A model generated the notes under the pieces. That model searched no databases and was not told where the DNA came from. It saw only the letters and a program-made list of their open reading frames with translations. A stretch of DNA of 18,617 nucleotides from Escherichia phage YDC107_2, in sequence record CP025713.1; one strand, given 5' to 3'. Below, piece by piece: positions 1,933-18,578 of the stretch (positions are counted from its first letter, which is position 1; each line of letters starts with the position of its first letter). Position numbers and translations under genes: made by a program.

Positions 1933-2229
1933 ATGCAAGCTATAGGATTCATTGTTTATATCGTCGTTGGTCTTTTTCAGTTGGCAGCAATTATGGCTGG
2001 GCTTGAATCATGGTGGGGATTGCACTGGATAATTGCAGCCCCCATTGCTTTCATCGTGAGCTATATTCCATTTGTTGGAGCGATTGTTGGTATGGTTGGC
2101 GCTGTGGATGTATGGCGGTGGGAGTGGTGGCAGGCTGGCCTTCTCTTCTTTGGTGGGATAATCTTTGCTATTGTCTGCGGTGGAATGTCATCATTTTTCG
2201 AATGGCTATCATTCAGAAAAGGAACGTGA
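1933..2229 (+). CDS. small integral membrane protein (98 aa, about three hydrophobic helices); possible superinfection-exclusion or moron protein
   Basis: Intact track ORF; AGGTGA precedes the ATG at 1933; the protein is almost entirely hydrophobic (…IVYIVVGLFQLAAIMAGL…IAAPIAFIVSYIPFVGAIVGMVGAV…LLFFGGIIFAIVCGG…). It occupies the position of sieA in P22-like genomes (between ejection genes and tailspike). Confidence 0.5.
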   Translation: MQAIGFIVYIVVGLFQLAAIMAGLESWWGLHWIIAAPIAFIVSYIPFVGAIVGMVGAVDVWRWEWWQAGLLFFGGIIFAIVCGGMSSFFEWLSFRKGT

Positions 2230-2238
2230 CATGTCACA

Positions 2239-2262
2239 GGCCGCTTTCGCGGCCTTTTCTTT
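2239..2262 (+). terminator. rho-independent terminator after the membrane protein gene
   Basis: GGCCGC (2239-2244), loop TTTC, GCGGCC (2249-2254), followed by TTTTCTTT (2255-2262). Confidence 0.5.
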
Positions 2263-2361
2263 ATGTGGTTTGTTTTCGTAATTGTTCGGCACAATAGTCG
2301 AGATGTGTTTGCAGATCCTGCATAGACATCTGTGAGCTGGTGACGTAGTTAATCAGTGCAG

Positions 2362-2710: not shown

Positions 2711-5685
2711 ATGACGGTCTCAACCGAAGTTGACCACAACGAATACACAGGTAACGGCGTTACGACATCATTTCCGTATACCTTTAGGGTTTTCAAGGAA
2801 TCTGATCTGGCAGTACAGGTGGTTGACCTTGACGAAAAATATCGCTGTGCTGGCTCTTGATACTGATTACACTGTCACTGGGGCTGGTGGATATAATGGC
2901 GGTAATGTAATTCTGTCGAAGGCGTTAGCTAACGGTTATCAGATTTCTATATCACGAGAGCTACCGGTTACGCAGGAAACTGATCTGCGAAATCAGGGAA
3001 AGTTTTTCGCTGAGGTGCATGAAGACGCGTTAGATAAGCTGACGATGCTGATACAGCAAGTCCGCAGTTGGTTTAGCCTGGCGCTGCGCAAACCATCATT
3101 TGTGGCAAACTATTACGATGCTTTGAATAATTACATCCGCAATTTGCGCGATCCTTCCAAGCCTCAAGATGCAGCTACAAAGAATTATGTTGATAATATT
3201 GTTAATGTGAATATTAACAGGACATTACGGGTTCCAGATAATTTTATTGAACCACTTCCTCCAGTTCATTTACTGGAAGAAACTGTCATTGGTATCGTCA
3301 ATGGTAAACCTATAGGTGTACCTGTGCCTTCTGGCAGTGCCGCAGATGTTCTTCTGCAATTATCTAGCGCAGGAGAAGGAAAAGGTGATGCATTATTTGG
3401 TGTAAGGCAGCCATTTGCCGGGCTGTAACTATAACTCAGCATGAAAACAATGCTCTTTTCTTAAATGTAAAACAATTCGGAGCAATTGGGGATGGGAAAT
3501 ATCATCCATTATCTGAGAGGTTTTCTTCAATTTCTGAAGCAAAATCCTTATATCCTTTTGTTGACTCATTATCTCAGTCAATAGACTGGGCCGCGTGGCA
3601 AGCTGCCCTTAACACAGGAAAGGTTATTTATGGTACTGATAATGCGTATGTAATAACGGATACGTTAACACCTGTTTCTGGTGGTGGGATAATTTGTCTT
3701 GGTGTGGGCAAATGGGTCTCAGGATATACTGCAACATTTGCTCCTGATATTACCACAGGGACCACATTCCTGATGTACGGGGTAGGAAATAAAAAATATA
3801 CTGTAGATTGTGTTTCTAATATGGATGTTAGTGGTGGTGTGGTTTCTAATCCATCTTCCGAAGACCCGTATACAACAACGGCACCTGCGTCATCATATGA
3901 TTTATTGGATTTTACTAACGGTGATGCTAATGGGGCTACAAGAGCCACGCTTAAACCATTCTCTGCCGCAATATTGATGCCAGAGACAGGATGTGTTCGC
4001 CTTGAGAACTTTCGTATTGTTCCATATTTCAATGGGCTGGATGGTTATAAAGACATTGCAAATACCGGTCTTGGCGATGAGTGGGATGTAGGTATTTGGT
4101 CACGTGCGTCTTTGGCAATGAATACCGCAATTTGCAGGTGGTTGGATACTGGCGCAAGACGGCACTTTTAAAAACGAACATTCCTGTATCTGGCACGCTG
4201 GCCGCTCAGGGCGAGGATGAAAACTATTATCACTGTAGATTCCAGGGATTCAAGGGTGTTTCGATCCGCGCCCATGATGTATTCCGAATTACAGCGGTAA
4301 CGTCCAGCACTATCGAAATCCCATGGTCATCAAGCCACACCTTCGAAACGTCCGGGGTTTTAAGATCGGGAGGCAGGAATTTCACTTATTCAGGATTATC
4401 CGTATCCGGTGATAAGTTAGTATTTACTGGAGTGTCTAACGCTTCTGAGGCAACAGTAGGTTCTACTATACGGCGAAATGACATAGATAACTTTGGTATG
4501 GCGGGAACGCAATTTTTCGATTGCTACATTACCAGCCTGTATCACCACACACATCTGCTTGCCACATCGCAATACCTGTCTCAGCCATTCAGCCGGCCAT
4601 CAGAGTGTATGGAGGTTTCAGGGGAACCAGTTCGCGGTGTACAGGTACATGCAGGAACCATTCAGGGATGGGATGATGTTCTTATTCATCTACATGACTG
4701 TGGAAATATGAACTTTTACAGTACATATTTCGAAAGCCAGCAAGCATATGTAACTATAAATGGTGGTAATGCTATTGGTTATGGAGCACGTATGATAGCT
4801 TCCAGGCAATCAACAAGCTCATTACCATATGCAGCAGGGAATACTCGAGTGCTTAGAATGGTCGGGTGCTCTGAAGGCAATGGCGTTGACTGGGGTCCTG
4901 TATTTAACAACTATACAGGAGGAAGATATAATTCTGGAGACGGTGTATTTAACCCCCGCGATGCATTTATAGACCATAAATCTCTTCCTGAGCAGTCAGG
5001 AGGTGAGTCAAGACTCGTATCACAAAAAGGAAATGCCAGAGTAGTATGTGGTGTTGGTAAAACTGTACTGCTTGGACCAACGTCAGGAGATTGTAATTTA
5101 CAGAGCAATACCGGAAGTTTAAATATTAGAAGTGGGATAAGAGTAAGAATCGGTCACGCTGATGGAACAGACTGGTGGTTGGCAGATGCTAATAAAATAG
5201 CTCCTGTTGATGATAATGTTAAAGCTATTGGACAGCCATCAAACAGATGCTCTGTTATCTATGCAGGAACCGGGTCAATCAATACGTCAGATGAAACTCT
5301 TAAAACAAGATATGATATTCTTAATGCAGAGCGTAATGCCGCTATTGAAATAAAGTCAGTCATCTATAAATTTAAATTTAATGACTCAATTAATCACAAA
5401 GGAATTGAGTCGTCCAGGTATCATTTTGGCGTTGGCGCTCAAACCGTAGGGGATATTCTTAGAAAGCATGGTTTAAACCCGGAGCAATATGCTTTTTGGT
5501 GTTACGATGAATGGCCTGACGTATGGGATGAAGAGGTGATAACTGAAGAGAGCACAGATCCTGATACAGGTGAGAAAATTTATTCTCAATATAAAACAGG
5601 AGATATGATTCTTGTAAAAAAAGCAGGAGGACGCTACGGAATTCGTTATGACGAATTAGCCATGTTTATATTAATGTCAATGTAA
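2711..5685 (+). CDS. tailspike / tail fibre protein: conserved N-terminal particle-binding domain, central pectate-lyase-like beta-helix, C-terminal intramolecular chaperone (S74-like) domain; split by three frameshifts
   Basis: ATG 2711 with GGAG at 2700-2703. The N-terminus MTVSTEVDHNEYTGNGVTTSFPYTFRVFKESDLAVQVVDLDE matches from memory the N-terminal domain shared by podovirus tailspikes. Segments are frame 2 (2711-2860), frame 0 (2730..3428), frame 2 (about 3389..4171, containing NALFLNVKQFGAIGDGKYHP, pectate-lyase-like) and frame 1 (4081..5685). The C-terminus …NTSDETLKTRYDILNAERNAAIE… resembles auto-cleaving chaperone domains of endosialidase-type tailspikes. The first shift is one extra A in the A-run at 2835-2839. 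Confidence 0.7.
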
Positions 5686-5697
5686 TAATAAATGCAA

Positions 5698-5730
5698 TAA
5701 CCCGAATAAAACAGCGGGGTTATTGTTATT
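5698..5730 (+). terminator. possible weak terminator after the tailspike gene
   Basis: Imperfect stem AACCCG…CGGGGTT followed by a T-rich stretch; weak. Confidence 0.3.
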
Positions 5731-6017
5731 ATAATAATGCTCTTAACTTCTTAAATGATATTTATATGCACTTGGATTATTAAATCTATATTATGCCTGT
5801 TATTTATGTGTTCTGTTATATGTTTTGCAGGCACTGTTGGCAGCATTAAAGGAAATTGTATTTATGGCGAAATAGCTGGTATCGTGTTTTTATTGTGCGT
5901 AAAAATAACAGACTGCATATATTATTGTATAAAGTTTTGGAAATGAAAACACTCAAACTTACCGCTGTGGATATGTTTTGACCATCGCGAATTGGATTGG
6001 TAATATTGGGTAACAAA

Positions 6018-6033
6018 AAACCATAAATGGTTT
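6018..6033. promoter_or_regulatory. 16-bp perfect palindrome AAACCATAAATGGTTT upstream of the lysis cassette
   Basis: Exact dyad symmetry about 35 bp upstream of the AGGAGG for the first lysis gene; candidate regulator binding site. Function is an inference. Confidence 0.3.
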
Positions 6034-6068
6034 ATCATGCGTAATGCTTTACTGTTCAGGAGGTAGTT

Positions 6069-6495
6069 ATGCATATAAACGGTGGAAAACATGTCAGCTC
6101 AACTAACCAGTGAAACTTTAAATCAGTGGCTTAGCATGAGTTCTTTGGCGGCAGTGATAGCAGGAGTTCCTCCTGAGGTTGCTTTGGGGTCTTTGGCTGG
6201 GGCGGTGATTTTTGTTACCTCTGCGGTAGAGTATCCCATTCGTCGTCGCGTGCTCTTGTCGATGCTTAGCTTTCTCTGCGGACTTCTATTCTACAAACCA
6301 GCAGCATCAATTCTTATCGGCATAGCCAGCCTGATCCCTACAATCACACAGGATTCTTTCGAGAAAGGGATTGTTTTCTCTGCCGGTGCATTTGTGTCAG
6401 CAATCGTCGCTGTGCGAATTGGGATCTGGCTCTATCACCGTTCCGATAATCCACGCGAGTTAATTCCGGGGAGAAAAGACGATGGTAACTCATGA
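6069..6495 (+). CDS. holin-like membrane protein; start ambiguous between ATG 6069 (strong RBS, out of frame) and GTG 6082 / ATG 6091
   Basis: Track ORF 6082..6495 (137 aa) has several hydrophobic helices. AGGAGG at 6058-6063 is ideally spaced for ATG 6069, which is in another frame and gives only 14 aa; an indel in GGAAAACA (6085-6092) would fuse them into an M…M dual-start pattern typical of holin/antiholin pairs. Confidence 0.5.
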
Positions 6496-6790
6496 GCTTT
6501 TTTTGCTTACCACCAATGCGGTTATTTGCGCCGGTATAGCAGTTCGAGTTGCCACATTTCGGAGAAACGGTTCTCAACACAGGCGATGGGGTGGGTGGCT
6601 TGCTTATTTCCTGATTGTTGCTGCGGCCAGCATTCCAGTTCGTGTCGCTTATGCAATCTGGTTACGCACGCCAATGGTTGTGGATTTATCTGAGGTCATT
6701 ATCAACGCTGTCATGCTTGCTGCAGTCATTAAAACGCGCGGTAACGTAGTTCAGATTTTCAAAATAACGAGGTCTAAACATGGAGATTAA
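6482..6790 (+). CDS. second small membrane protein of the lysis cassette (holin or lysis accessory, 102 aa)
   Basis: Intact track ORF with GGAG upstream; two to three hydrophobic helices; overlaps the end of the preceding gene and the start of the endolysin. Confidence 0.45.
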
Positions 6791-8205: not shown

Positions 8206-9456
8206 GTGCTTACCGATACAAAATTAAAAAACCTCAAGCCGCAGGACAAACTGTACAAGGTCTCCGATCGTGACGGGCTGTATGTAGCTGTGCTTACGTC
8301 AGGCACGGTCTCATTTCGTTATGACTACCGTATCAACGGTCGCCGCGAAACACTGGTAATCGGGCAGTATGGGCGTGACGGTATCAGCCTGGCAGAAGCG
8401 CGGGAAGAACTGATTGCTGCAAAGAAGCTGCTTAAAGCAGGCCAGTCACCGGCTGCGGCTAAACGTGACGGTATCAAAAAGATTCGTGGTGCCGAAACGT
8501 TTGCGGTACATACCGACAGTTATATGAAACACGTCATCCTGGCTGAAAGTACCCGCGCAATGAAGCAGGCAGTGATCGACCGTGACATACTTCCGGTTCT
8601 TGGCAACAAAATGATGGCTGAAATTACCACATCGATGGTTCGTGATTTGTGTGACCGGATTGTCGAACGCGGTGGCCGGGCAACAGCAGTGCAGGCCAGG
8701 GAGATCATCAGCAGCGTATACCGTCACGCCAATGACCGTGGTCATGGTTTGTTTAATCCTGCGGCTGACATTAAGCCTTCGTCTATCGCCATATTTAAAC
8801 CACGAGAGCGAACACTGACACCAGAAGAAATTGGCCTGTTCTTCCGCACGTTGGATGCCATTGGTGCTATGGGCACTATGAAAATGGCTTTAAAACTGGT
8901 GCTTATCACTATGGTTCGTAAGGGCGAATTCACCAATGCAACGTGGGATGAAATAGATTTTAAAAAATGGACATGGACAATTCCTTCAGACCGCATGAAG
9001 GGAAGCCGGGCGCATGTTATTTACCTGCCTAAACAGGCTCAGGATATATTGGTCGGGTTGCAGATGTGCGCTGGTGGAAGTGAATATCTGGTTCCTGGTC
9101 GTTACAATTTCCGGAAGCCATTATCTAATGCCGCGCTGAACTCTCTGATCGACAGAACGGTGAAAATAATAAATGAAGATGGTGAGCATATTCAGGATTT
9201 CACCGTACACGATATGCGCCGTACAGCCAGTACGTTGTTGCATGAGGCTGGTTATCCTTCAGACTGGATTGAAAAGGCTCTGGCACATGAGCAGAAAGGT
9301 GTGCGCGCCGTATATAACAAAGCGGAATACGCCAGACAGCGCGCCTACATGTTGCAGCAGTGGGCCGATATGATTGATTCCTGGATTAACGGGGAGCATA
9401 CGGATCTGATTCCGTTCTCCCCGTCGAAGTTTGAGAAGTGGATGGCGGGGGAATAA
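8206..9456 (+). CDS. int: tyrosine recombinase / phage integrase, P4-like with N-terminal arm-binding domain
   Basis: 416-aa intact ORF with GTG start. The N-terminus LTDTKLKNLKPQDKLYKVSDRDGLYVAV is typical of the arm-DNA-binding domain of P4-family integrases; the C-terminal catalytic region carries the HxxR…Y pattern (…HDMRRTASTLLHEAGY…AHEQKGVRAVYNKAEY). Confidence 0.85.
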   Translation: MLTDTKLKNLKPQDKLYKVSDRDGLYVAVLTSGTVSFRYDYRINGRRETLVIGQYGRDGISLAEAREELIAAKKLLKAGQSPAAAKRDGIKKIRGAETFAVHTDSYMKHVILAESTRAMKQAVIDRDILPVLGNKMMAEITTSMVRDLCDRIVERGGRATAVQAREIISSVYRHANDRGHGLFNPAADIKPSSIAIFKPRERTLTPEEIGLFFRTLDAIGAMGTMKMALKLVLITMVRKGEFTNATWDEIDFKKWTWTIPSDRMKGSRAHVIYLPKQAQDILVGLQMCAGGSEYLVPGRYNFRKPLSNAALNSLIDRTVKIINEDGEHIQDFTVHDMRRTASTLLHEAGYPSDWIEKALAHEQKGVRAVYNKAEYARQRAYMLQQWADMIDSWINGEHTDLIPFSPSKFEKWMAGE

Positions 9457-9459
9457 CGT

Positions 9460-9654
9460 TTAATTATTCTGCTGATTTTCTTCCATCTCGGCTTCTGCTG
9501 CCAGTGATTCAATTTTATCTGTGAATATTGCTGACAGTGTTGCAAATTCAGCATCAGTGACAGCGGGAATTGGAACAAACCTGATCCCGCTGTGTGCAAG
9601 CATGTTTGCAGTTTCAAGGCATTTCCTTAAATCTGATGGTGATGCCCTGTTCAT
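9460..9654 (-). CDS. small acidic protein (64 aa) translationally coupled to the methyltransferase; function unknown
   Basis: The ATG at 9654..9652 overlaps the methyltransferase stop (ATGA); it is in frame with track ORF 9460..9774; sequence MNRASPSDLRKCLETANMLAHSGIRFVPIPAVTDAEFATLSAIFTDKIESLAAEAEMEENQQNN. No homology recognised. Confidence 0.35.
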   Translation of the reverse strand: MNRASPSDLRKCLETANMLAHSGIRFVPIPAVTDAEFATLSAIFTDKIESLAAEAEMEENQQNN

Positions 9655-10301
9655 GCTGCACGCTCCCGCCCCTGGTTGTCTGTTGGTGACAGCGGAGCAT
9701 TGCTGAATGCATTTGTTAATCTGGCAATATCCAACGCGTATCCAGGGTGTAGTTGCACTGCCGGGTCTTCGCACTGATTACCCCAAACATCGAAACCATG
9801 AGACGACTGGCGGGCGAACAGTTCAATGCGAGAAACATCGCCTAACAATTGCACAAGTTTTTCACGAACGATATCTGGTTTTCTTGAATGCTCAAGCCGC
9901 GGTGCGGTAAATGACTGAACGATCCCTGCATTAATGCGCGTAGGTAGTTTTCCCTTTACTGCAAACAGGCAATCTTCACTATTGGCGCGAGTCATGTGAC
10001 CCATACCCATAACCAGTTTATCTGGTTGTCGACTACCACATTTTATCCACGTGAATCCCTTCATGGTCATCAGACGGAATCCCCAGGCCTCAACAACTTT
10101 TAGTGCTTCGAGTGGTTGTGTTGGCACCCACCACATGGCCAACAGACAGTTTTCATCGGCCAAATCCCACACAGGAAGGCGGCAGATATCCAGCACACTC
10201 ATAACCGGATATTTAAAACCGGCACCGCGATTACCATCTGCGGCTTTGTCCCGGTATACCCAGGGTGGATCTGCATAGATTAGTGTGTATTTCTTAGTCA
10301 T
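9651..10301 (-). CDS. DNA N6-adenine methyltransferase, MT-A70 family (orphan phage methylase)
   Basis: MTKKYTLIYADPPW… carries the DPPW catalytic motif of MT-A70 / Dam-like N6-adenine methyltransferases. The likely start is the ATG at 10301 (the track extends upstream to 10313). No restriction partner is visible. Confidence 0.7.
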   Translation of the reverse strand: MTKKYTLIYADPPWVYRDKAADGNRGAGFKYPVMSVLDICRLPVWDLADENCLLAMWWVPTQPLEALKVVEAWGFRLMTMKGFTWIKCGSRQPDKLVMGMGHMTRANSEDCLFAVKGKLPTRINAGIVQSFTAPRLEHSRKPDIVREKLVQLLGDVSRIELFARQSSHGFDVWGNQCEDPAVQLHPGYALDIARLTNAFSNAPLSPTDNQGRERAA

Positions 10302-10560
10302 AAACCACCCCACAACATCCTATGCCGCTATAGTCGCCACGGCGAAGGCCGTTACCTTTTGTGATACATTGGTCCCTGCGAACCGCGATCCTTGCACGCT
10401 CAACATCACCAGAAGCAACATCCATACACTGAAGCCAAAGGTGAGCGGCAATGCGGAACTGCCCTTTTTTCTCTCTTTCAATCGCGCGTTTTTCGATCTC
10501 TATCGCCGCAGGAGTAACGGCGACAATCTTTGACGGACTGCGCATTGAAACCTTGTTCAT
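10294..10560 (-). CDS. PerC-like transcriptional activator family protein
   Basis: …KRAIEREKKGQFRIAAHLWLQCMDVASGDVERARIAVRRDQCITKG… resembles the PerC family signature (Lys-Gly…RRAA…W…RRDQC) from memory. The start is ambiguous: ATG 10560 or GTG 10593. Confidence 0.5.
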   Translation of the reverse strand: MNKVSMRSPSKIVAVTPAAIEIEKRAIEREKKGQFRIAAHLWLQCMDVASGDVERARIAVRRDQCITKGNGLRRGDYSGIGCCGVVYD

Positions 10561-10702
10561 GTGATATTTTTCAAGTCGGCTTAACTTTCTCACTTAATCC
10601 AACCCTCTCTGAAAATTAATGCCAGCAGATAAAGCCATGCTGAAACAGAGGCCAGGAATAAGTACCATCCTGACCATTTGCTCCAGTGCCTTAGCAGCAC
10701 AC

Positions 10703-13228: not shown

Positions 13229-13245
13229 GTTACCGTTGAGGTAAT
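13229..13245. promoter_or_regulatory. operator-like palindrome, site C (GTTACCGTTGAGGTAAT) at the early-left promoter
   Basis: TTACCG-N3-AGGTAA, directly abutting the -10-like element; an extra TTACC half-site lies at 13217-13221. Confidence 0.5.
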
Positions 13246-13272
13246 AATTATGCGTATATGGTTTGATGTCAA
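13246..13272 (-). promoter_or_regulatory. candidate early-left (pL-like) sigma-70 promoter
   Basis: On the minus strand a perfect TTGACA -35 (13272..13267) is followed 15-17 nt later by a CATAATT -10-like element (about 13252..13246), bracketed by operator sites D and C. Confidence 0.4.
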
Positions 13273-17274: not shown

Positions 17275-17584
17275 CGATCACAAAACAACGTGTAGAAGAA
17301 ATCATATCCCGCATTGAAATGTATGGGCATGGTGGGATACCGCTGACGAGGTTTATGACCTTGCTGTACTGGCGCTGAATTTATCAAATATCGCAAAACT
17401 CAAGCGATACGAGCTTGATATGGATGGTTGTGACTCGTTCGGTCAGGATTGTGGCGCTGACATGACTGAAGATTCTGATGGCGATTATGTCCTGTTTGAT
17501 GACGTGGTTAAGTTGTTTGAGTTTGATACAACCACTCAGAAGTTAGAAAACCCAGCAAAGGAGTCAACCAGTGAGCAAGATTAA
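17271..17584 (+). CDS. hypothetical acidic protein (about 104 aa); one frameshift
   Basis: ATG 17271 gives MTITKQRVEEIISRIEMYGHGG…; after a shift at GGTGGG (about 17328) it continues …DTADEVYDLAVLALNLSNIAKLKRYELDMDGCDSFGQDCGADMTEDSDGDYVLFDDVVKLFEFDTTTQKLENPAKESTSEQD, stopping at 17582-17584. Confidence 0.35.
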
Positions 17585-18578
17585 TTACCAGGCACTGCGT
17601 GAAAAGGCAGAGAAAGCAACGTGTGGTGTGTGGTCGCTCGAATATGGAGAGGGACGATTTGATGGTGATGATGCACTAATTCATCGCGAGGCTGCTGGAT
17701 ATATTCCTATTTGCAGAATTGAAGGAGCGCATCCAGAAAGCCGTTTCTATGAAGATTTCCAAATGGAACAGCAGGCCAATGCTGAATTCATCGCCGCCGC
17801 CAATCCGGCTACTGTGCTGGCGCTTCTGGATGAACGGGAAAGAAACCAGCAATACATCAAACGCCGTGACCAGGAGAACGAGGATATTGCTCTTACGGTT
17901 GGGAAGCTGAGAGTTGAGCTTGAGGAAGTAAAACAACACGCTGAAGAATTATCCGAAACCAAGGCTGTTCGTAACCAATGGCGGCCAGATATTTGCCCAA
18001 TAACCGGACGTGCATTTTTCATGTGGATTGAGCATCCAACATTGGGGAATGTGCCGACATATGGTGGCCCATTAGATAGTTACACCATTCCAACAAAGGA
18101 CGGTGACGGTGAGTTTTCATGTGAGCGTTACGATCATGATTTTGGCGGTTGGGTAGAAAGCGAATGTCTTGGGTTATATCTGATTGATGATAGAGAACAA
18201 TGCAGGGTCTACGAACTGGAGGAACGCGTTAAGGAACTGGAAGCGCGGGAAATACTGCTCCCGGAACGTAGCAGCATGCTTCATCGAACAGATTTTCACG
18301 AGGATTACCAAACGGTAATGGCATACAAGTTTCTGAGGTCATCGCTGCAATCCGCGCCGCTGGCATTCGCATCAAAGGAGAGTGAGATGGACGGACAAAT
18401 ATCAATCGTTCGACCAGGAGCATGTGACGATCGCGAAATACGAATAATTATTCGTCTGGCAATGGGGAAAGCAATAACTGCTCTCATTACCCCAGAAAAT
18501 CTCGCATTAGCATTAACAGGAAAGTCAGACCTGCCAGTAGAGCTAAAGCTGCGAAATGTTGAGATTAAGGTGAAATAG
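17571..18578 (+). CDS. Ead/Ea22-like early protein
   Basis: 335-aa intact ORF with GTG start after AAGGAG; the N-terminus MSKINYQALREKAEKATCGVWS… resembles Ea22-like proteins of lambdoid prophages (from memory), with a central coiled coil. Confidence 0.55.
   Translation: MSKINYQALREKAEKATCGVWSLEYGEGRFDGDDALIHREAAGYIPICRIEGAHPESRFYEDFQMEQQANAEFIAAANPATVLALLDERERNQQYIKRRDQENEDIALTVGKLRVELEEVKQHAEELSETKAVRNQWRPDICPITGRAFFMWIEHPTLGNVPTYGGPLDSYTIPTKDGDGEFSCERYDHDFGGWVESECLGLYLIDDREQCRVYELEERVKELEAREILLPERSSMLHRTDFHEDYQTVMAYKFLRSSLQSAPLAFASKESEMDGQISIVRPGACDDREIRIIIRLAMGKAITALITPENLALALTGKSDLPVELKLRNVEIKVK

Follow-up and report, generated by a model that had tools for sequence, protein, structure and literature searches.

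A lambda Orf63 homolog and an orphan MT-A70 methyltransferase as separate, tightly packed genes beside the integrase of a phiV10-like phage

Next to the integrase gene of Escherichia phage YDC107_2 lie two closely packed genes, one for an orphan MT-A70-family methyltransferase and one for a 64-aa homolog of the lambda protein Orf63. We favor, with moderate confidence, the reading that they are two separate accessory genes acting as modulators of the lysis-lysogeny switch, and not a pair devoted to restriction evasion. The small gene would be translated from its own ATG, which lies within the methylase stop (ATGA) and has a GGGAG ahead of it inside the methylase 3′ end, so that its translation may begin by re-initiation or independently. 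By homology, both proteins would be non-essential and would push the phage towards lytic growth or prophage induction, a role that we infer for each by analogy with its studied relatives. The product of the small gene would be a small dimeric helix-strand-helix protein, the dimer being known from lambda Orf63.

The stretch of DNA analysed, hereafter the window, comprises 18,617 nucleotides (record CP025713.1) and derives from a temperate podophage of the phiV10/epsilon15 type (Uetakevirus). It is 99.8% identical to phage EC.W1-9, and across the locus phiV10 shares about 98.6% DNA identity with it and carries the same two genes as p33 (methylase) and p32 (DUF1382). The phiV10 RefSeq gene order (PerC-like, DNA methyltransferase, DUF1382 protein, convergent int) matches that of the window, in which the following features were located.

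10301-9651, minus strand: orphan MT-A70-family N6-adenine methyltransferase, 216 aa, DPPW at residues 11-14 (from translation; ATG at 10301, TGA at 9653-9651)
9654-9460, minus strand: lambda Orf63 homolog (DUF1382), 64 aa, stand-alone (from translation; ATG at 9654-9652, TAA at 9462-9460)
9651-9654, minus strand: ATGA overlap of the small-ORF start codon and the methylase stop codon (read from the sequence)
9663-9667, minus strand: Shine-Dalgarno-like GGGAG, 8 nt 5′ of the small-ORF ATG and within the methylase 3′ coding sequence (read from the sequence; putative ribosome binding)
10294-10593, minus strand: PerC-like small regulator gene, directly upstream of the methylase (Pfam PerC, 6e-07; phrog_868, 5.7e-62)
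8206-9456, plus strand: P4-type tyrosine integrase, convergent with the early-left operon (Pfam Arm-DNA-bind_3, Phage_int_M and Phage_integrase; phiV10 annotation)
13244-13272, minus strand: candidate early-left promoter, TTGACA-17-AATTAT (from a consensus scan; putative promoter function)

Packing at the locus is close throughout. The stop of the PerC-like gene, whose true start may be internal (the phiV10 annotation gives 88 aa), overlaps the methylase start by 8 nt, and at the other end the stops of the small ORF and the integrase are 3 nt apart. A terminator-like hairpin is found at 13342-13323 with the candidate promoter just downstream, and its coordinate offset matches the terminator annotated in phiV10; the promoter is likely the start of the operon that ends in the methylase and the Orf63 homolog. 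From gene packing and consensus scans, the two genes thus appear to form the distal end of a leftward early operon. An earlier sequence-only reading of this DNA had reached the same placement and had described a 64-aa acidic ORF that starts in the ATGA and ends just before the convergent int gene, all of which agrees with what we find. Scans of the window for Rfam families and tRNAs gave no matches. The locus itself is ordinary, as both genes are already annotated in the phiV10 RefSeq record and belong to known phage families.

The methylase matches Pfam MT-A70 (PF05063) over the whole profile (positions 1-172 of 172; E 3.2e-22, 79.7 bits against a cutoff of 23.9) and phrog_359 at 1.8e-120. 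It also matches the solved ciliate MT-A70 family proteins 7F4R and 7F4L at about 4e-13 and METTL3 chains at about 5e-06, and its catalytic motif is D11-P12-P13-W14. We class it as an orphan beta-class MT-A70 N6-adenine methyltransferase of the M.EcoPA8orf6770P clade. It is flanked by the PerC-like, AlpA, RecT and RecE-like genes to one side and by DUF1382 and int to the other. No cognate endonuclease was found either adjacent to it or in a scan of ten other large ORFs of the window, where the only nuclease was a RecE-like PDDEXK recombination exonuclease; the label "orphan," which the sequence-only reading had also given to this DPPW enzyme, is therefore correct. GATC occurs 65 times in the window against 82.6 expected, a ratio of 0.79 that is uninformative on specificity.

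Homology of the 64-aa ORF to lambda Orf63 (DUF1382) is clear from sequence comparison. It matches Pfam DUF1382 (PF07131) along the entire profile (positions 1-60 of 60; E 6e-30, 103.6 bits against a cutoff of 27), phrog_292 at 1.9e-29 (PHROGs class "unknown function"), and the lambda Orf63 entry 8DSB of the PDB over residues 2-62 (phmmer E 1.1e-12), with 51% identity to lambda orf63 by tblastn. The positions reported as conserved in the family (PMC10869804) are all present, namely R3, R10, the GIRFVPIP strand with its two prolines, E36 and K47, where the strand residues carry native lambda numbers taken from the 8DSB phmmer alignment. In alignment A2, G23, R25, F26, V27, P28, P30 and E36 are invariant.

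A structure prediction and a remote-homology search had been proposed for this protein. An AF2 monomer model, built from a shallower alignment, has a pLDDT of 81 and places helices at residues 6-21 and 34-62 around an extended segment at 22-33; the two helices are those of the lambda AlphaFold model in PMC10869804. A Foldseek search of the model against the PDB returned no significant match, 8DSB included. The model used as query is monomeric, two helices from one protomer of what would be an intertwined dimer, and the assignment was made on sequence evidence; the authors of 8DSB likewise found no structural neighbors.

Members of the family are as a rule small and independent. Among 258 DUF1382 cluster representatives, most are 55 to 80 aa and nearly all stand alone at about 60 aa; of those listed, the longest that is plausible has 198 aa. 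A check of the longer DUF1382-containing proteins for informative fusions gave only sporadic ones with neighboring genes (a Dam fragment, DUF1317, an HTH). A homologous-protein search returned only close relatives. Scanning genome contigs with one narrow peptide pattern gave mostly low-identity matches in odd taxa; the one match that was checked, from Shewanella (locus L178), was 100% lambda DNA, and the other matches of about 50% identity in non-enterobacterial assemblies probably reflect the same lambda contamination.

Lambda Orf63 is a dimeric protein of the exo-xis region with an NMR structure, its dimeric state having been established by SEC-MALS and NMR (PMC10869804). Deletion of orf63 in lambda and Phi24B raised lysogenisation and host survival and lowered induction by H2O2 (PMC5575149), while supplying Orf63 reduced survivors and lysogens at least 10-fold (PMC10869804). 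The window protein resembles it in size, in about 50% identity over 51-60 residues in addition to the full-length Pfam match, in the predicted order of helix, extended segment and helix, and in the position of its gene in the leftward early operon of a temperate phage, between recombination genes and int. The two phages nevertheless differ, lambda being a lambdoid siphovirus and the window phage an epsilon15-group podovirus; the upstream neighbor is orf60a in lambda and the methylase here, and only the convergent int lies downstream in the window. The window protein is also the more acidic, with a pI of 4.5 (net charge -5.4) against 5.2. Lambda Orf63 K54E was inactive in complementation, yet glutamate is the commonest family residue at that position (PMC10869804). 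The window homolog has E54, so its activity may differ from that of the lambda protein.

For the methylase the closest comparison is M.EcoPA8orf6770P of the Stx2a phage PA8 (KP682374.1 gp5), likewise an orphan enzyme of a temperate E. coli phage, to which it is 83% identical over residues 1-187, the DPPW included. In both phages a DUF1382 gene follows directly and a convergent integrase is close by. The PA8 enzyme was nearly inactive alone, with near-background activity on dam- and dam-/dcm- DNA; with the protein PNB-2 it formed a 1:1 complex that preferred 16S rRNA and the 30S subunit (PMC10810198). It raised spontaneous induction, and its DPPW motif was needed, an APPA mutant losing function; the study did not discuss the downstream Orf63 homolog (PMC10810198). 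Among these methylases a pro-induction role has been demonstrated for the PA8 enzyme alone, which owed its RNA specificity to PNB-2.

Several features separate the two loci. The gene upstream encodes PNB-2 in PA8 and a PerC-like protein in the window, the overlap with DUF1382 is 41 nt as annotated in PA8 and 4 nt in the window, and the tails past residue 187 are unrelated (21 aa in PA8, 29 aa in the window). It is this C-terminal tail of the PA8-type methylase that Gong et al. proposed to bind PNB-2 (PMC10810198). PNB-2 (phrog_1680) had no tblastn match in the window (best E 2.7) and was present in 0/160 phiV10-type loci, which had been fetched by similarity to either gene (80 of them with the methylase as the query), versus 25/31 PA2-type loci. 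With PNB-2 absent and the tail different, the substrate in the window phage may be either DNA (GATC) or RNA. The PerC-like gene is present in 160/160 phiV10-type loci with the methylase and lies within 700 nt upstream of almost all methylases with the phiV10 tail. Tail type tracks the upstream gene (PerC-like versus PNB-2) within lineages, but this lends no independent support to the PerC-like protein as a partner in place of PNB-2. In Klebsiella-type methylases one shared tail occurs behind PNB-2, PerC-like or other genes. The phiV10-type loci in the comparison of tail types are all close relatives.

Variation among related prophages establishes that both ORFs are real, separate genes under purifying selection. 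In 63 gap-free unique alleles, taken from 129 full-length related loci that all have the same frame arrangement, pN/pS was 0.195 for the methylase and 0.197 for the small ORF. Polymorphic sites in the latter numbered 7, 3 and 16 at codon positions 1, 2 and 3, and its annotated frame was intact in 63/63 alleles, the other two frames in 0/63; in one related locus (L026) the small ORF has lost 1 nt. Sister prophages replace DUF1382 at the identical ATGA with a 219-aa NinI-like phosphatase (17 loci) or an 82-aa protein (4 loci), and GTGCAGCATGA, which surrounds the GGGAG, is common to all three cargo variants. The same 4-nt overlap joins DUF1382 to many other upstream genes (Dam, a C5+Dam fusion, orf60a/DUF1317, DUF4406, an MmcB-like gene and phrog_874), and the ATGA coupling is nothing special to the methylase.

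These observations leave almost no room for the idea that a frameshift or a sequencing error has broken a single methylase gene into these ORFs, which the sequence-only reading had also decided against. A longer ORF does extend in the small-gene frame back to a GTG at 9774, and some gene callers give products of 88-102 aa, but the methylase has matched the MT-A70 profile end to end by its residue 176, no family member listed reaches the length of such a fusion (about 280 aa), the exchange of cassettes falls exactly at the ATG, and the N-terminus MNRASP is the conserved DUF1382 start behind many different upstream genes. A more serious competitor, though one we regard as doubtful, is that the methylase is a Dam-like DNA adenine methyltransferase (acting at GATC or a relaxed site) that needs no partner and serves restriction escape or epigenetic control of the phage. 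REBASE-style annotation lists relatives as GATC enzymes, among them M.EcoGV of a prophage of E. coli O104:H4 C227-11 (PMC10810198, PMC6602927), another prophage-borne orphan, which methylated GATC in vivo when overproduced (PMC10810198); its likeness to the window methylase is indirect, since Gong et al. call it highly similar to the PA8 enzyme. The early-operon position, the lack of a PNB-2 gene in the window lineage and a strong PADLOC Type II methyltransferase match (MTase_II model, 2.2e-77) also suit a DNA methylase. However, the M.EcoGV result came from overproduction, for which the authors caution that methylation may be off-target (PMC10810198), the purified PA8 enzyme is near background on DNA lacking dam methylation, and E. 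coli hosts are already Dam+, so that GATC methylation would bring little gain. The methylase may still have the anti-restriction or epigenetic function first suggested for it; however, its 83%-identical relative showed almost no DNA methylation in vitro and was an rRNA methyltransferase when joined by its partner.

The suggestion that the 64-aa protein is an anti-defence candidate fared worse. That it is an anti-defence factor (acting, for instance, through DNA mimicry or by inhibiting some host immune protein) in an end-of-operon cargo slot we consider very unlikely, even though it is small, acidic, early and non-essential and its slot holds other cargo in sister prophages. Its amino acid polymorphism clusters at residues 45-46, in the helix that bears the ligand-binding cleft of lambda Orf63, a peptide-binding cleft for which there is no known partner (PMC10869804). 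Yet the published phenotypes of the family are pro-lytic and pro-induction and were seen as effects on lysogenisation and induction in ordinary K-12 hosts; no anti-defence activity of DUF1382 was found reported in the literature examined; lambda Orf63 is only mildly acidic and showed no binding in an assay with a single dsDNA; and 371 phage records show the gene to be widely conserved, not sporadic, among lambda and Stx phages. Searches with the protein matched only DUF1382 in Pfam and nothing in PADLOC, a collection of defence-system and not anti-defence families. We think it very unlikely, too, that the Orf63 homolog and the methylase form one pro-induction module, in which the former, in phages lacking PNB-2, would take its place as a partner, regulatory or specificity subunit, or in which both would act on a common target such as the ribosome. 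Such a module would account for the recurrence of the pair beside int in podophages that are unrelated (phiV10-like and Stx phage PA8-like), and for the reports that either gene by itself raises prophage induction (PMC10810198, PMC5575149); MT-A70 enzymes usually need a partner (PMC10810198), and Orf63 has no known one. The methylase-DUF1382 order recurs in unrelated phages, as PNB-2, methylase, DUF1382 in Stx phages PA8 and VT2phi_272, although the integrases share only 26% identity. DUF1382 has an MT-A70 homolog in its flanks (up to 4 kb per side) in 160/160 phiV10-type loci, 80 of them retrieved with the methylase query, and within 3 kb of it in 31/39 PA2-type and 56/130 Klebsiella/Enterobacter-type loci; these samples, however, are biased to close relatives, and co-occurrence counts are no statistical test. 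Each gene, moreover, is found or works without the other. Lambda Orf63 functions with no MT-A70 gene next to it, and a plasmid-borne methylase alone complemented the PA2 defect (PMC10810198). Epsilon15 has a methylase (gp29, shorter at 192 aa) and a 60-aa hydrophobic peptide where the window has DUF1382, phiV10-like prophages keep the methylase but may carry the phosphatase or a different gene instead of DUF1382, and DUF1382 follows its many unrelated upstream genes with the same overlap.

Two separate accessory genes that modulate the choice between lysis and lysogeny remain our preferred reading. As a discovery it carries little weight, both families having published structures or phenotypes, and what follows from it concerns how such loci are labelled. 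For the small "unknown acidic ORF," the appropriate label is lambda Orf63 homolog. Nor should the role of an anti-restriction DNA methylase be assumed for the gene before it; the closest studied relative is reported to control prophage induction and to be a subunit of an rRNA methyltransferase.

Reading both open reading frames (ORFs), their junction and the neighboring integrase gene confirmed the coordinates and features that the sequence-only reading had reported, and its structural description of the locus was right. The elements concerned are the following.

10301-9651, minus strand: 216-aa methylase ORF (ATG at 10301, TGA at 9653-9651; N-terminal start MTKKYTLIYADPPW)
9654-9460, minus strand: 64-aa small ORF (ATG at 9654-9652, TAA at 9462-9460)
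10294-10593, minus strand: PerC-like gene, overlapping the methylase start by 8 nt
8206-9456, plus strand: convergent P4-type integrase gene, int
13272-13244: promoter-like site
17571-18578, plus strand: Ead/Ea22-like protein ORF (Pfam, 1.4e-31)

The ATGA at 9654-9651 holds the start codon of the small ORF and the stop codon of the methylase in four bases, GGGAG lies 8 nt 5' of the small ORF ATG, and the small protein has a pI of 4.5 and a net charge of -5.4. The small ORF and integrase stops are separated by 3 nt. No terminator is predicted in that gap (window 9454-9462), so transcripts of the leftward early operon should extend into int in the antisense direction; in phage epsilon15, RNase III sites were annotated at the corresponding position.

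Across the locus, identity is 99.8% to Escherichia phage EC.W1-9 and 98.6% to phiV10; to Salmonella phage epsilon15 it is ~79%, over part of the locus only. phiV10 aligns to 74% of the entire window, at 95.7%. From these identities we assign the window to a phiV10/epsilon15-like temperate podophage (genus Uetakevirus). The phiV10 RefSeq record has the same gene order, which, read leftward, comprises a RecE/RecT-type recombination gene, an AlpA-like regulator, a small membrane protein, a PerC-like activator, a DNA methyltransferase, a DUF1382 family protein and the convergent integrase. The minus-strand genes of the window are tightly packed below the promoter-like site, which comes after a terminator-like hairpin corresponding to one annotated in phiV10; their earlier placement in an early operon is reasonable on these grounds, as a reading of the layout only. 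The Ead/Ea22-like gene lies in the rightward operon, 3' of a lambda-P-like replication gene. Ea22 represents another lambda exo-xis-region family, reported to be pro-lysogenic.

The small ORF, previously taken for an unknown acidic protein, is a member of the known DUF1382/lambda Orf63 family. It matches Pfam DUF1382 (PF07131) over the full profile at 6e-30, PHROG 292 at 1.9e-29 and the solved structure 8DSB, which is lambda Orf63 (PMC10869804), at 1.1e-12. The conserved positions listed in PMC10869804 are kept (R3, R10, the central strand GIRFVPIP, E36 and K47), the native lambda numbering of the strand being derived from the alignment of the small ORF with 8DSB. The structure prediction proposed alongside the homology search was also run, and the AlphaFold2 model (pLDDT 81) has helices at 6-21 and 34-62 with an extended segment between, the same helix layout as the AlphaFold model of lambda Orf63 reported in PMC10869804. 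Lambda Orf63 forms an obligate dimer; a designed helical peptide binds in its hydrophobic cleft, and no binding was seen with the single dsDNA tried (PMC10869804). Deletion of orf63 in lambda and in the Stx phage Phi24B increased lysogenization and host survival, decreased H2O2-induced prophage induction and left postinfection lytic growth unimpaired (PMC5575149). As a caveat, residue 54 of the window protein is E: lambda Orf63 K54E was inactive in complementation, yet family members have E there more often than any other residue (PMC10869804). Among alleles otherwise at least 94% identical, amino acid variation is focused on residues 45 (T/A/E/Q) and 46 (D/N/G) and the last residue, 64 (N/Y); the strongest ligand-induced NMR shifts of lambda Orf63 begin at S45, in helix 2. 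DUF1382 matches at 50% identity in Shewanella, Bradyrhizobium, Kitasatospora, Paenibacillus and other assemblies (L176-L191, several of them contigs of ~48.4 kb) are probably lambda DNA contamination, because the sole one checked, L178 (Shewanella canadensis, 3500-6500), is 100% identical to lambda.

The methylase clearly belongs to the MT-A70 family and to the clade of the Stx2a phage PA8 enzyme and M.EcoGV. The Pfam MT-A70 profile is covered in full (3.2e-22), and further matches are to solved ciliate MT-A70 family proteins (7F4R and 7F4L), METTL3 chains and a PADLOC Type II methyltransferase model. No endonuclease was found near it or among ten other large window ORFs scanned, which bears out its description as an orphan. 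Its closest studied relative is the PA8 enzyme, M.EcoPA8orf6770P (gp5), with 83% identity over residues 1-187, and the VT2phi_272 methylase gave the same result. The PA8 enzyme requires its DPPW motif, increases both spontaneous prophage induction and the killing of amoebae, and forms a 1:1 complex with PNB-2, the product of the gene upstream, that prefers 16S rRNA and 30S subunits (Gong, Chakraborty and Koudelka, PMC10810198). PNB-2 is absent from the window and from all of the 160 phiV10-type loci fetched, versus its presence in 25/31 PA2-type loci; where Stx phages have PNB-2, the window and phiV10-type phages have the PerC-like gene, found with the methylase in 160/160 phiV10-type loci and directly upstream of nearly all. 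The PerC-like gene also has a weak, subthreshold match to NCBIfam ANR (AraC negative regulator). The C-terminal 29 residues of the window enzyme fail to align with the tail of the PA8 enzyme, a segment suggested to be needed for PNB-2 binding (PMC10810198). Because the PNB-2 gene is absent and the PA8-type tail is replaced, both being defining features of that group, membership among PNB-2-dependent rRNA methyltransferases is not clear.

The methylase and the small ORF are two genes. Across 63 distinct alleles of the methylase-small ORF pair in related prophages, pN/pS is ~0.20 for both genes, the polymorphic sites of the small ORF fall on codon positions 1/2/3 as 7/3/16, and its frame is intact in 63/63. 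Separate from these alleles, locus L026 has a 1-nt deletion at ~4670, early in its DUF1382 gene (GATTTAGG versus GATTTAAGG); the gene is a pseudogene there, or the sequence contains an error. The DNA past the methylase stop, surveyed in 80 methylase-anchored loci, is of three types with the common start GTGCAGCATGA.

Cargo 3' of the methylase stop in 80 loci (L006-L085)
DUF1382 gene: 59/80 loci, L026 counted
219-aa NinI-like Ser/Thr phosphatase: 17/80 loci (e.g., L011, 4648-5307)
82-aa PHROG 9805 protein, then other DNA: 4/80 loci (e.g., L014, 4648-4896)

Each type starts at the identical ATGA, with the same GGGAG within the methylase 3' end, and in phiV10-like prophages the interval separating the methylase stop from int is a variable cargo slot. 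This makes the small gene an exchangeable cassette with its own start codon as the left edge. Where the phosphatase is present, the right-hand junction lies inside the last codons of int; L064 is a further example locus for the slot. A family profile search of 1.84 billion representatives returned 258 DUF1382 members, nearly all stand-alone and ~60 aa long; the longer members checked are few and are sporadic fusions with whichever gene adjoins, and none among the matches listed is long enough for a methylase-DUF1382 fusion. The allele statistics, the cassette swap at the ATG and the lack of a listed fusion uphold the sequence-only preference for a separate gene over a frameshifted extension.

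Loci anchored on DUF1382 in other phages show a variety of genes immediately 5' of it: a 226-aa PHROG 874 protein (80 loci), MT-A70 (31 loci), a PerC-like gene with a gap, orf60a/DUF1317, DUF551, DUF4406, an MmcB-like gene, Dam (PF05869) or a C5+Dam fusion. Most of these loci show the same 4-nt overlap, as in two Enterobacter-type prophages.

L167, 2199-4192: 601-aa C5-methylase+Dam fusion, 4-nt overlap with DUF1382
L169, 1877-2616: 183-aa Dam, 4-nt overlap with DUF1382

With the MT-A70 cases, DNA methylases of three unrelated families are therefore found directly 5' of DUF1382; the DUF1382 protein is identical in L167 and L169. Since the same overlap stands behind such varied genes, the ATGA junction is a general feature of cassette packing into early operons and does not mark any particular link with the methylase.

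The functional roles first proposed, an anti-restriction or epigenetic methylase and an anti-defense small protein, found no support, and the relatives point to modulation of the lysis-lysogeny decision. A plain GATC-type DNA methylase serving restriction evasion or epigenetic control is possible, if doubtful: overproduced M.EcoGV, highly similar to the PA8 enzyme, methylates GATC in vivo, and GATC specificity is listed for relatives, but the purified PA8 enzyme alone was near background on DNA, dam- DNA included (PMC10810198). We consider an anti-defense role for the small protein improbable, and a true methylase-Orf63 functional module a shade more so. For such a module, an MT-A70 homolog occurs in the DUF1382 flanks (up to 4 kb per side) of 160/160 phiV10-type loci, and for 80 of these the methylase itself had been the query; with a limit of 3 kb, the figures are 31/39 PA2-type and 56/130 Klebsiella/Enterobacter-type loci. 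These counts come from samples dominated by close relatives and do not amount to a statistical test. The methylase-DUF1382-convergent int order is also common to the window, PA8 and VT2phi_272, with integrases only 26% identical. In PA8 (L364, KP682374.1) the gene immediately 3' of gp5 (2056-2268, minus strand) encodes an Orf63/DUF1382 homolog with 49% identity to the window ORF and is unmentioned in PMC10810198. In phage PA2, IS629 inserted in gp5 could have a polar effect on the downstream homolog, although the methylase alone complemented the PA2 defect (PMC10810198). An obligate partnership is opposed by lambda Orf63, which works without an MT-A70 gene beside orf63, by epsilon15, which has the methylase with a hydrophobic 60-aa peptide instead of DUF1382, and by sister prophages that keep the methylase and swap the DUF1382 gene out. 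A single frameshifted methylase gene, ranked last, is refuted by the intact frames, the cassette exchange and the stand-alone family members.

The identities of the two genes are nearly certain, a pro-induction role shared by both has about an even chance by analogy with their relatives, and the explanation combining them is somewhat better than evenly supported. The finding is already known, because both genes are annotated in phiV10 and their families have published work. A leftward early transcript would carry both genes, with the small gene translated from its own ATG, presumably by restart after the overlapping TGA or by fresh initiation at GGGAG. By analogy, the methylase may act via adenine methylation of a nucleic acid and the Orf63 homolog as a small dimer binding a partner through its helical cleft, and both products would be dispensable modulators favoring lytic development or prophage induction.
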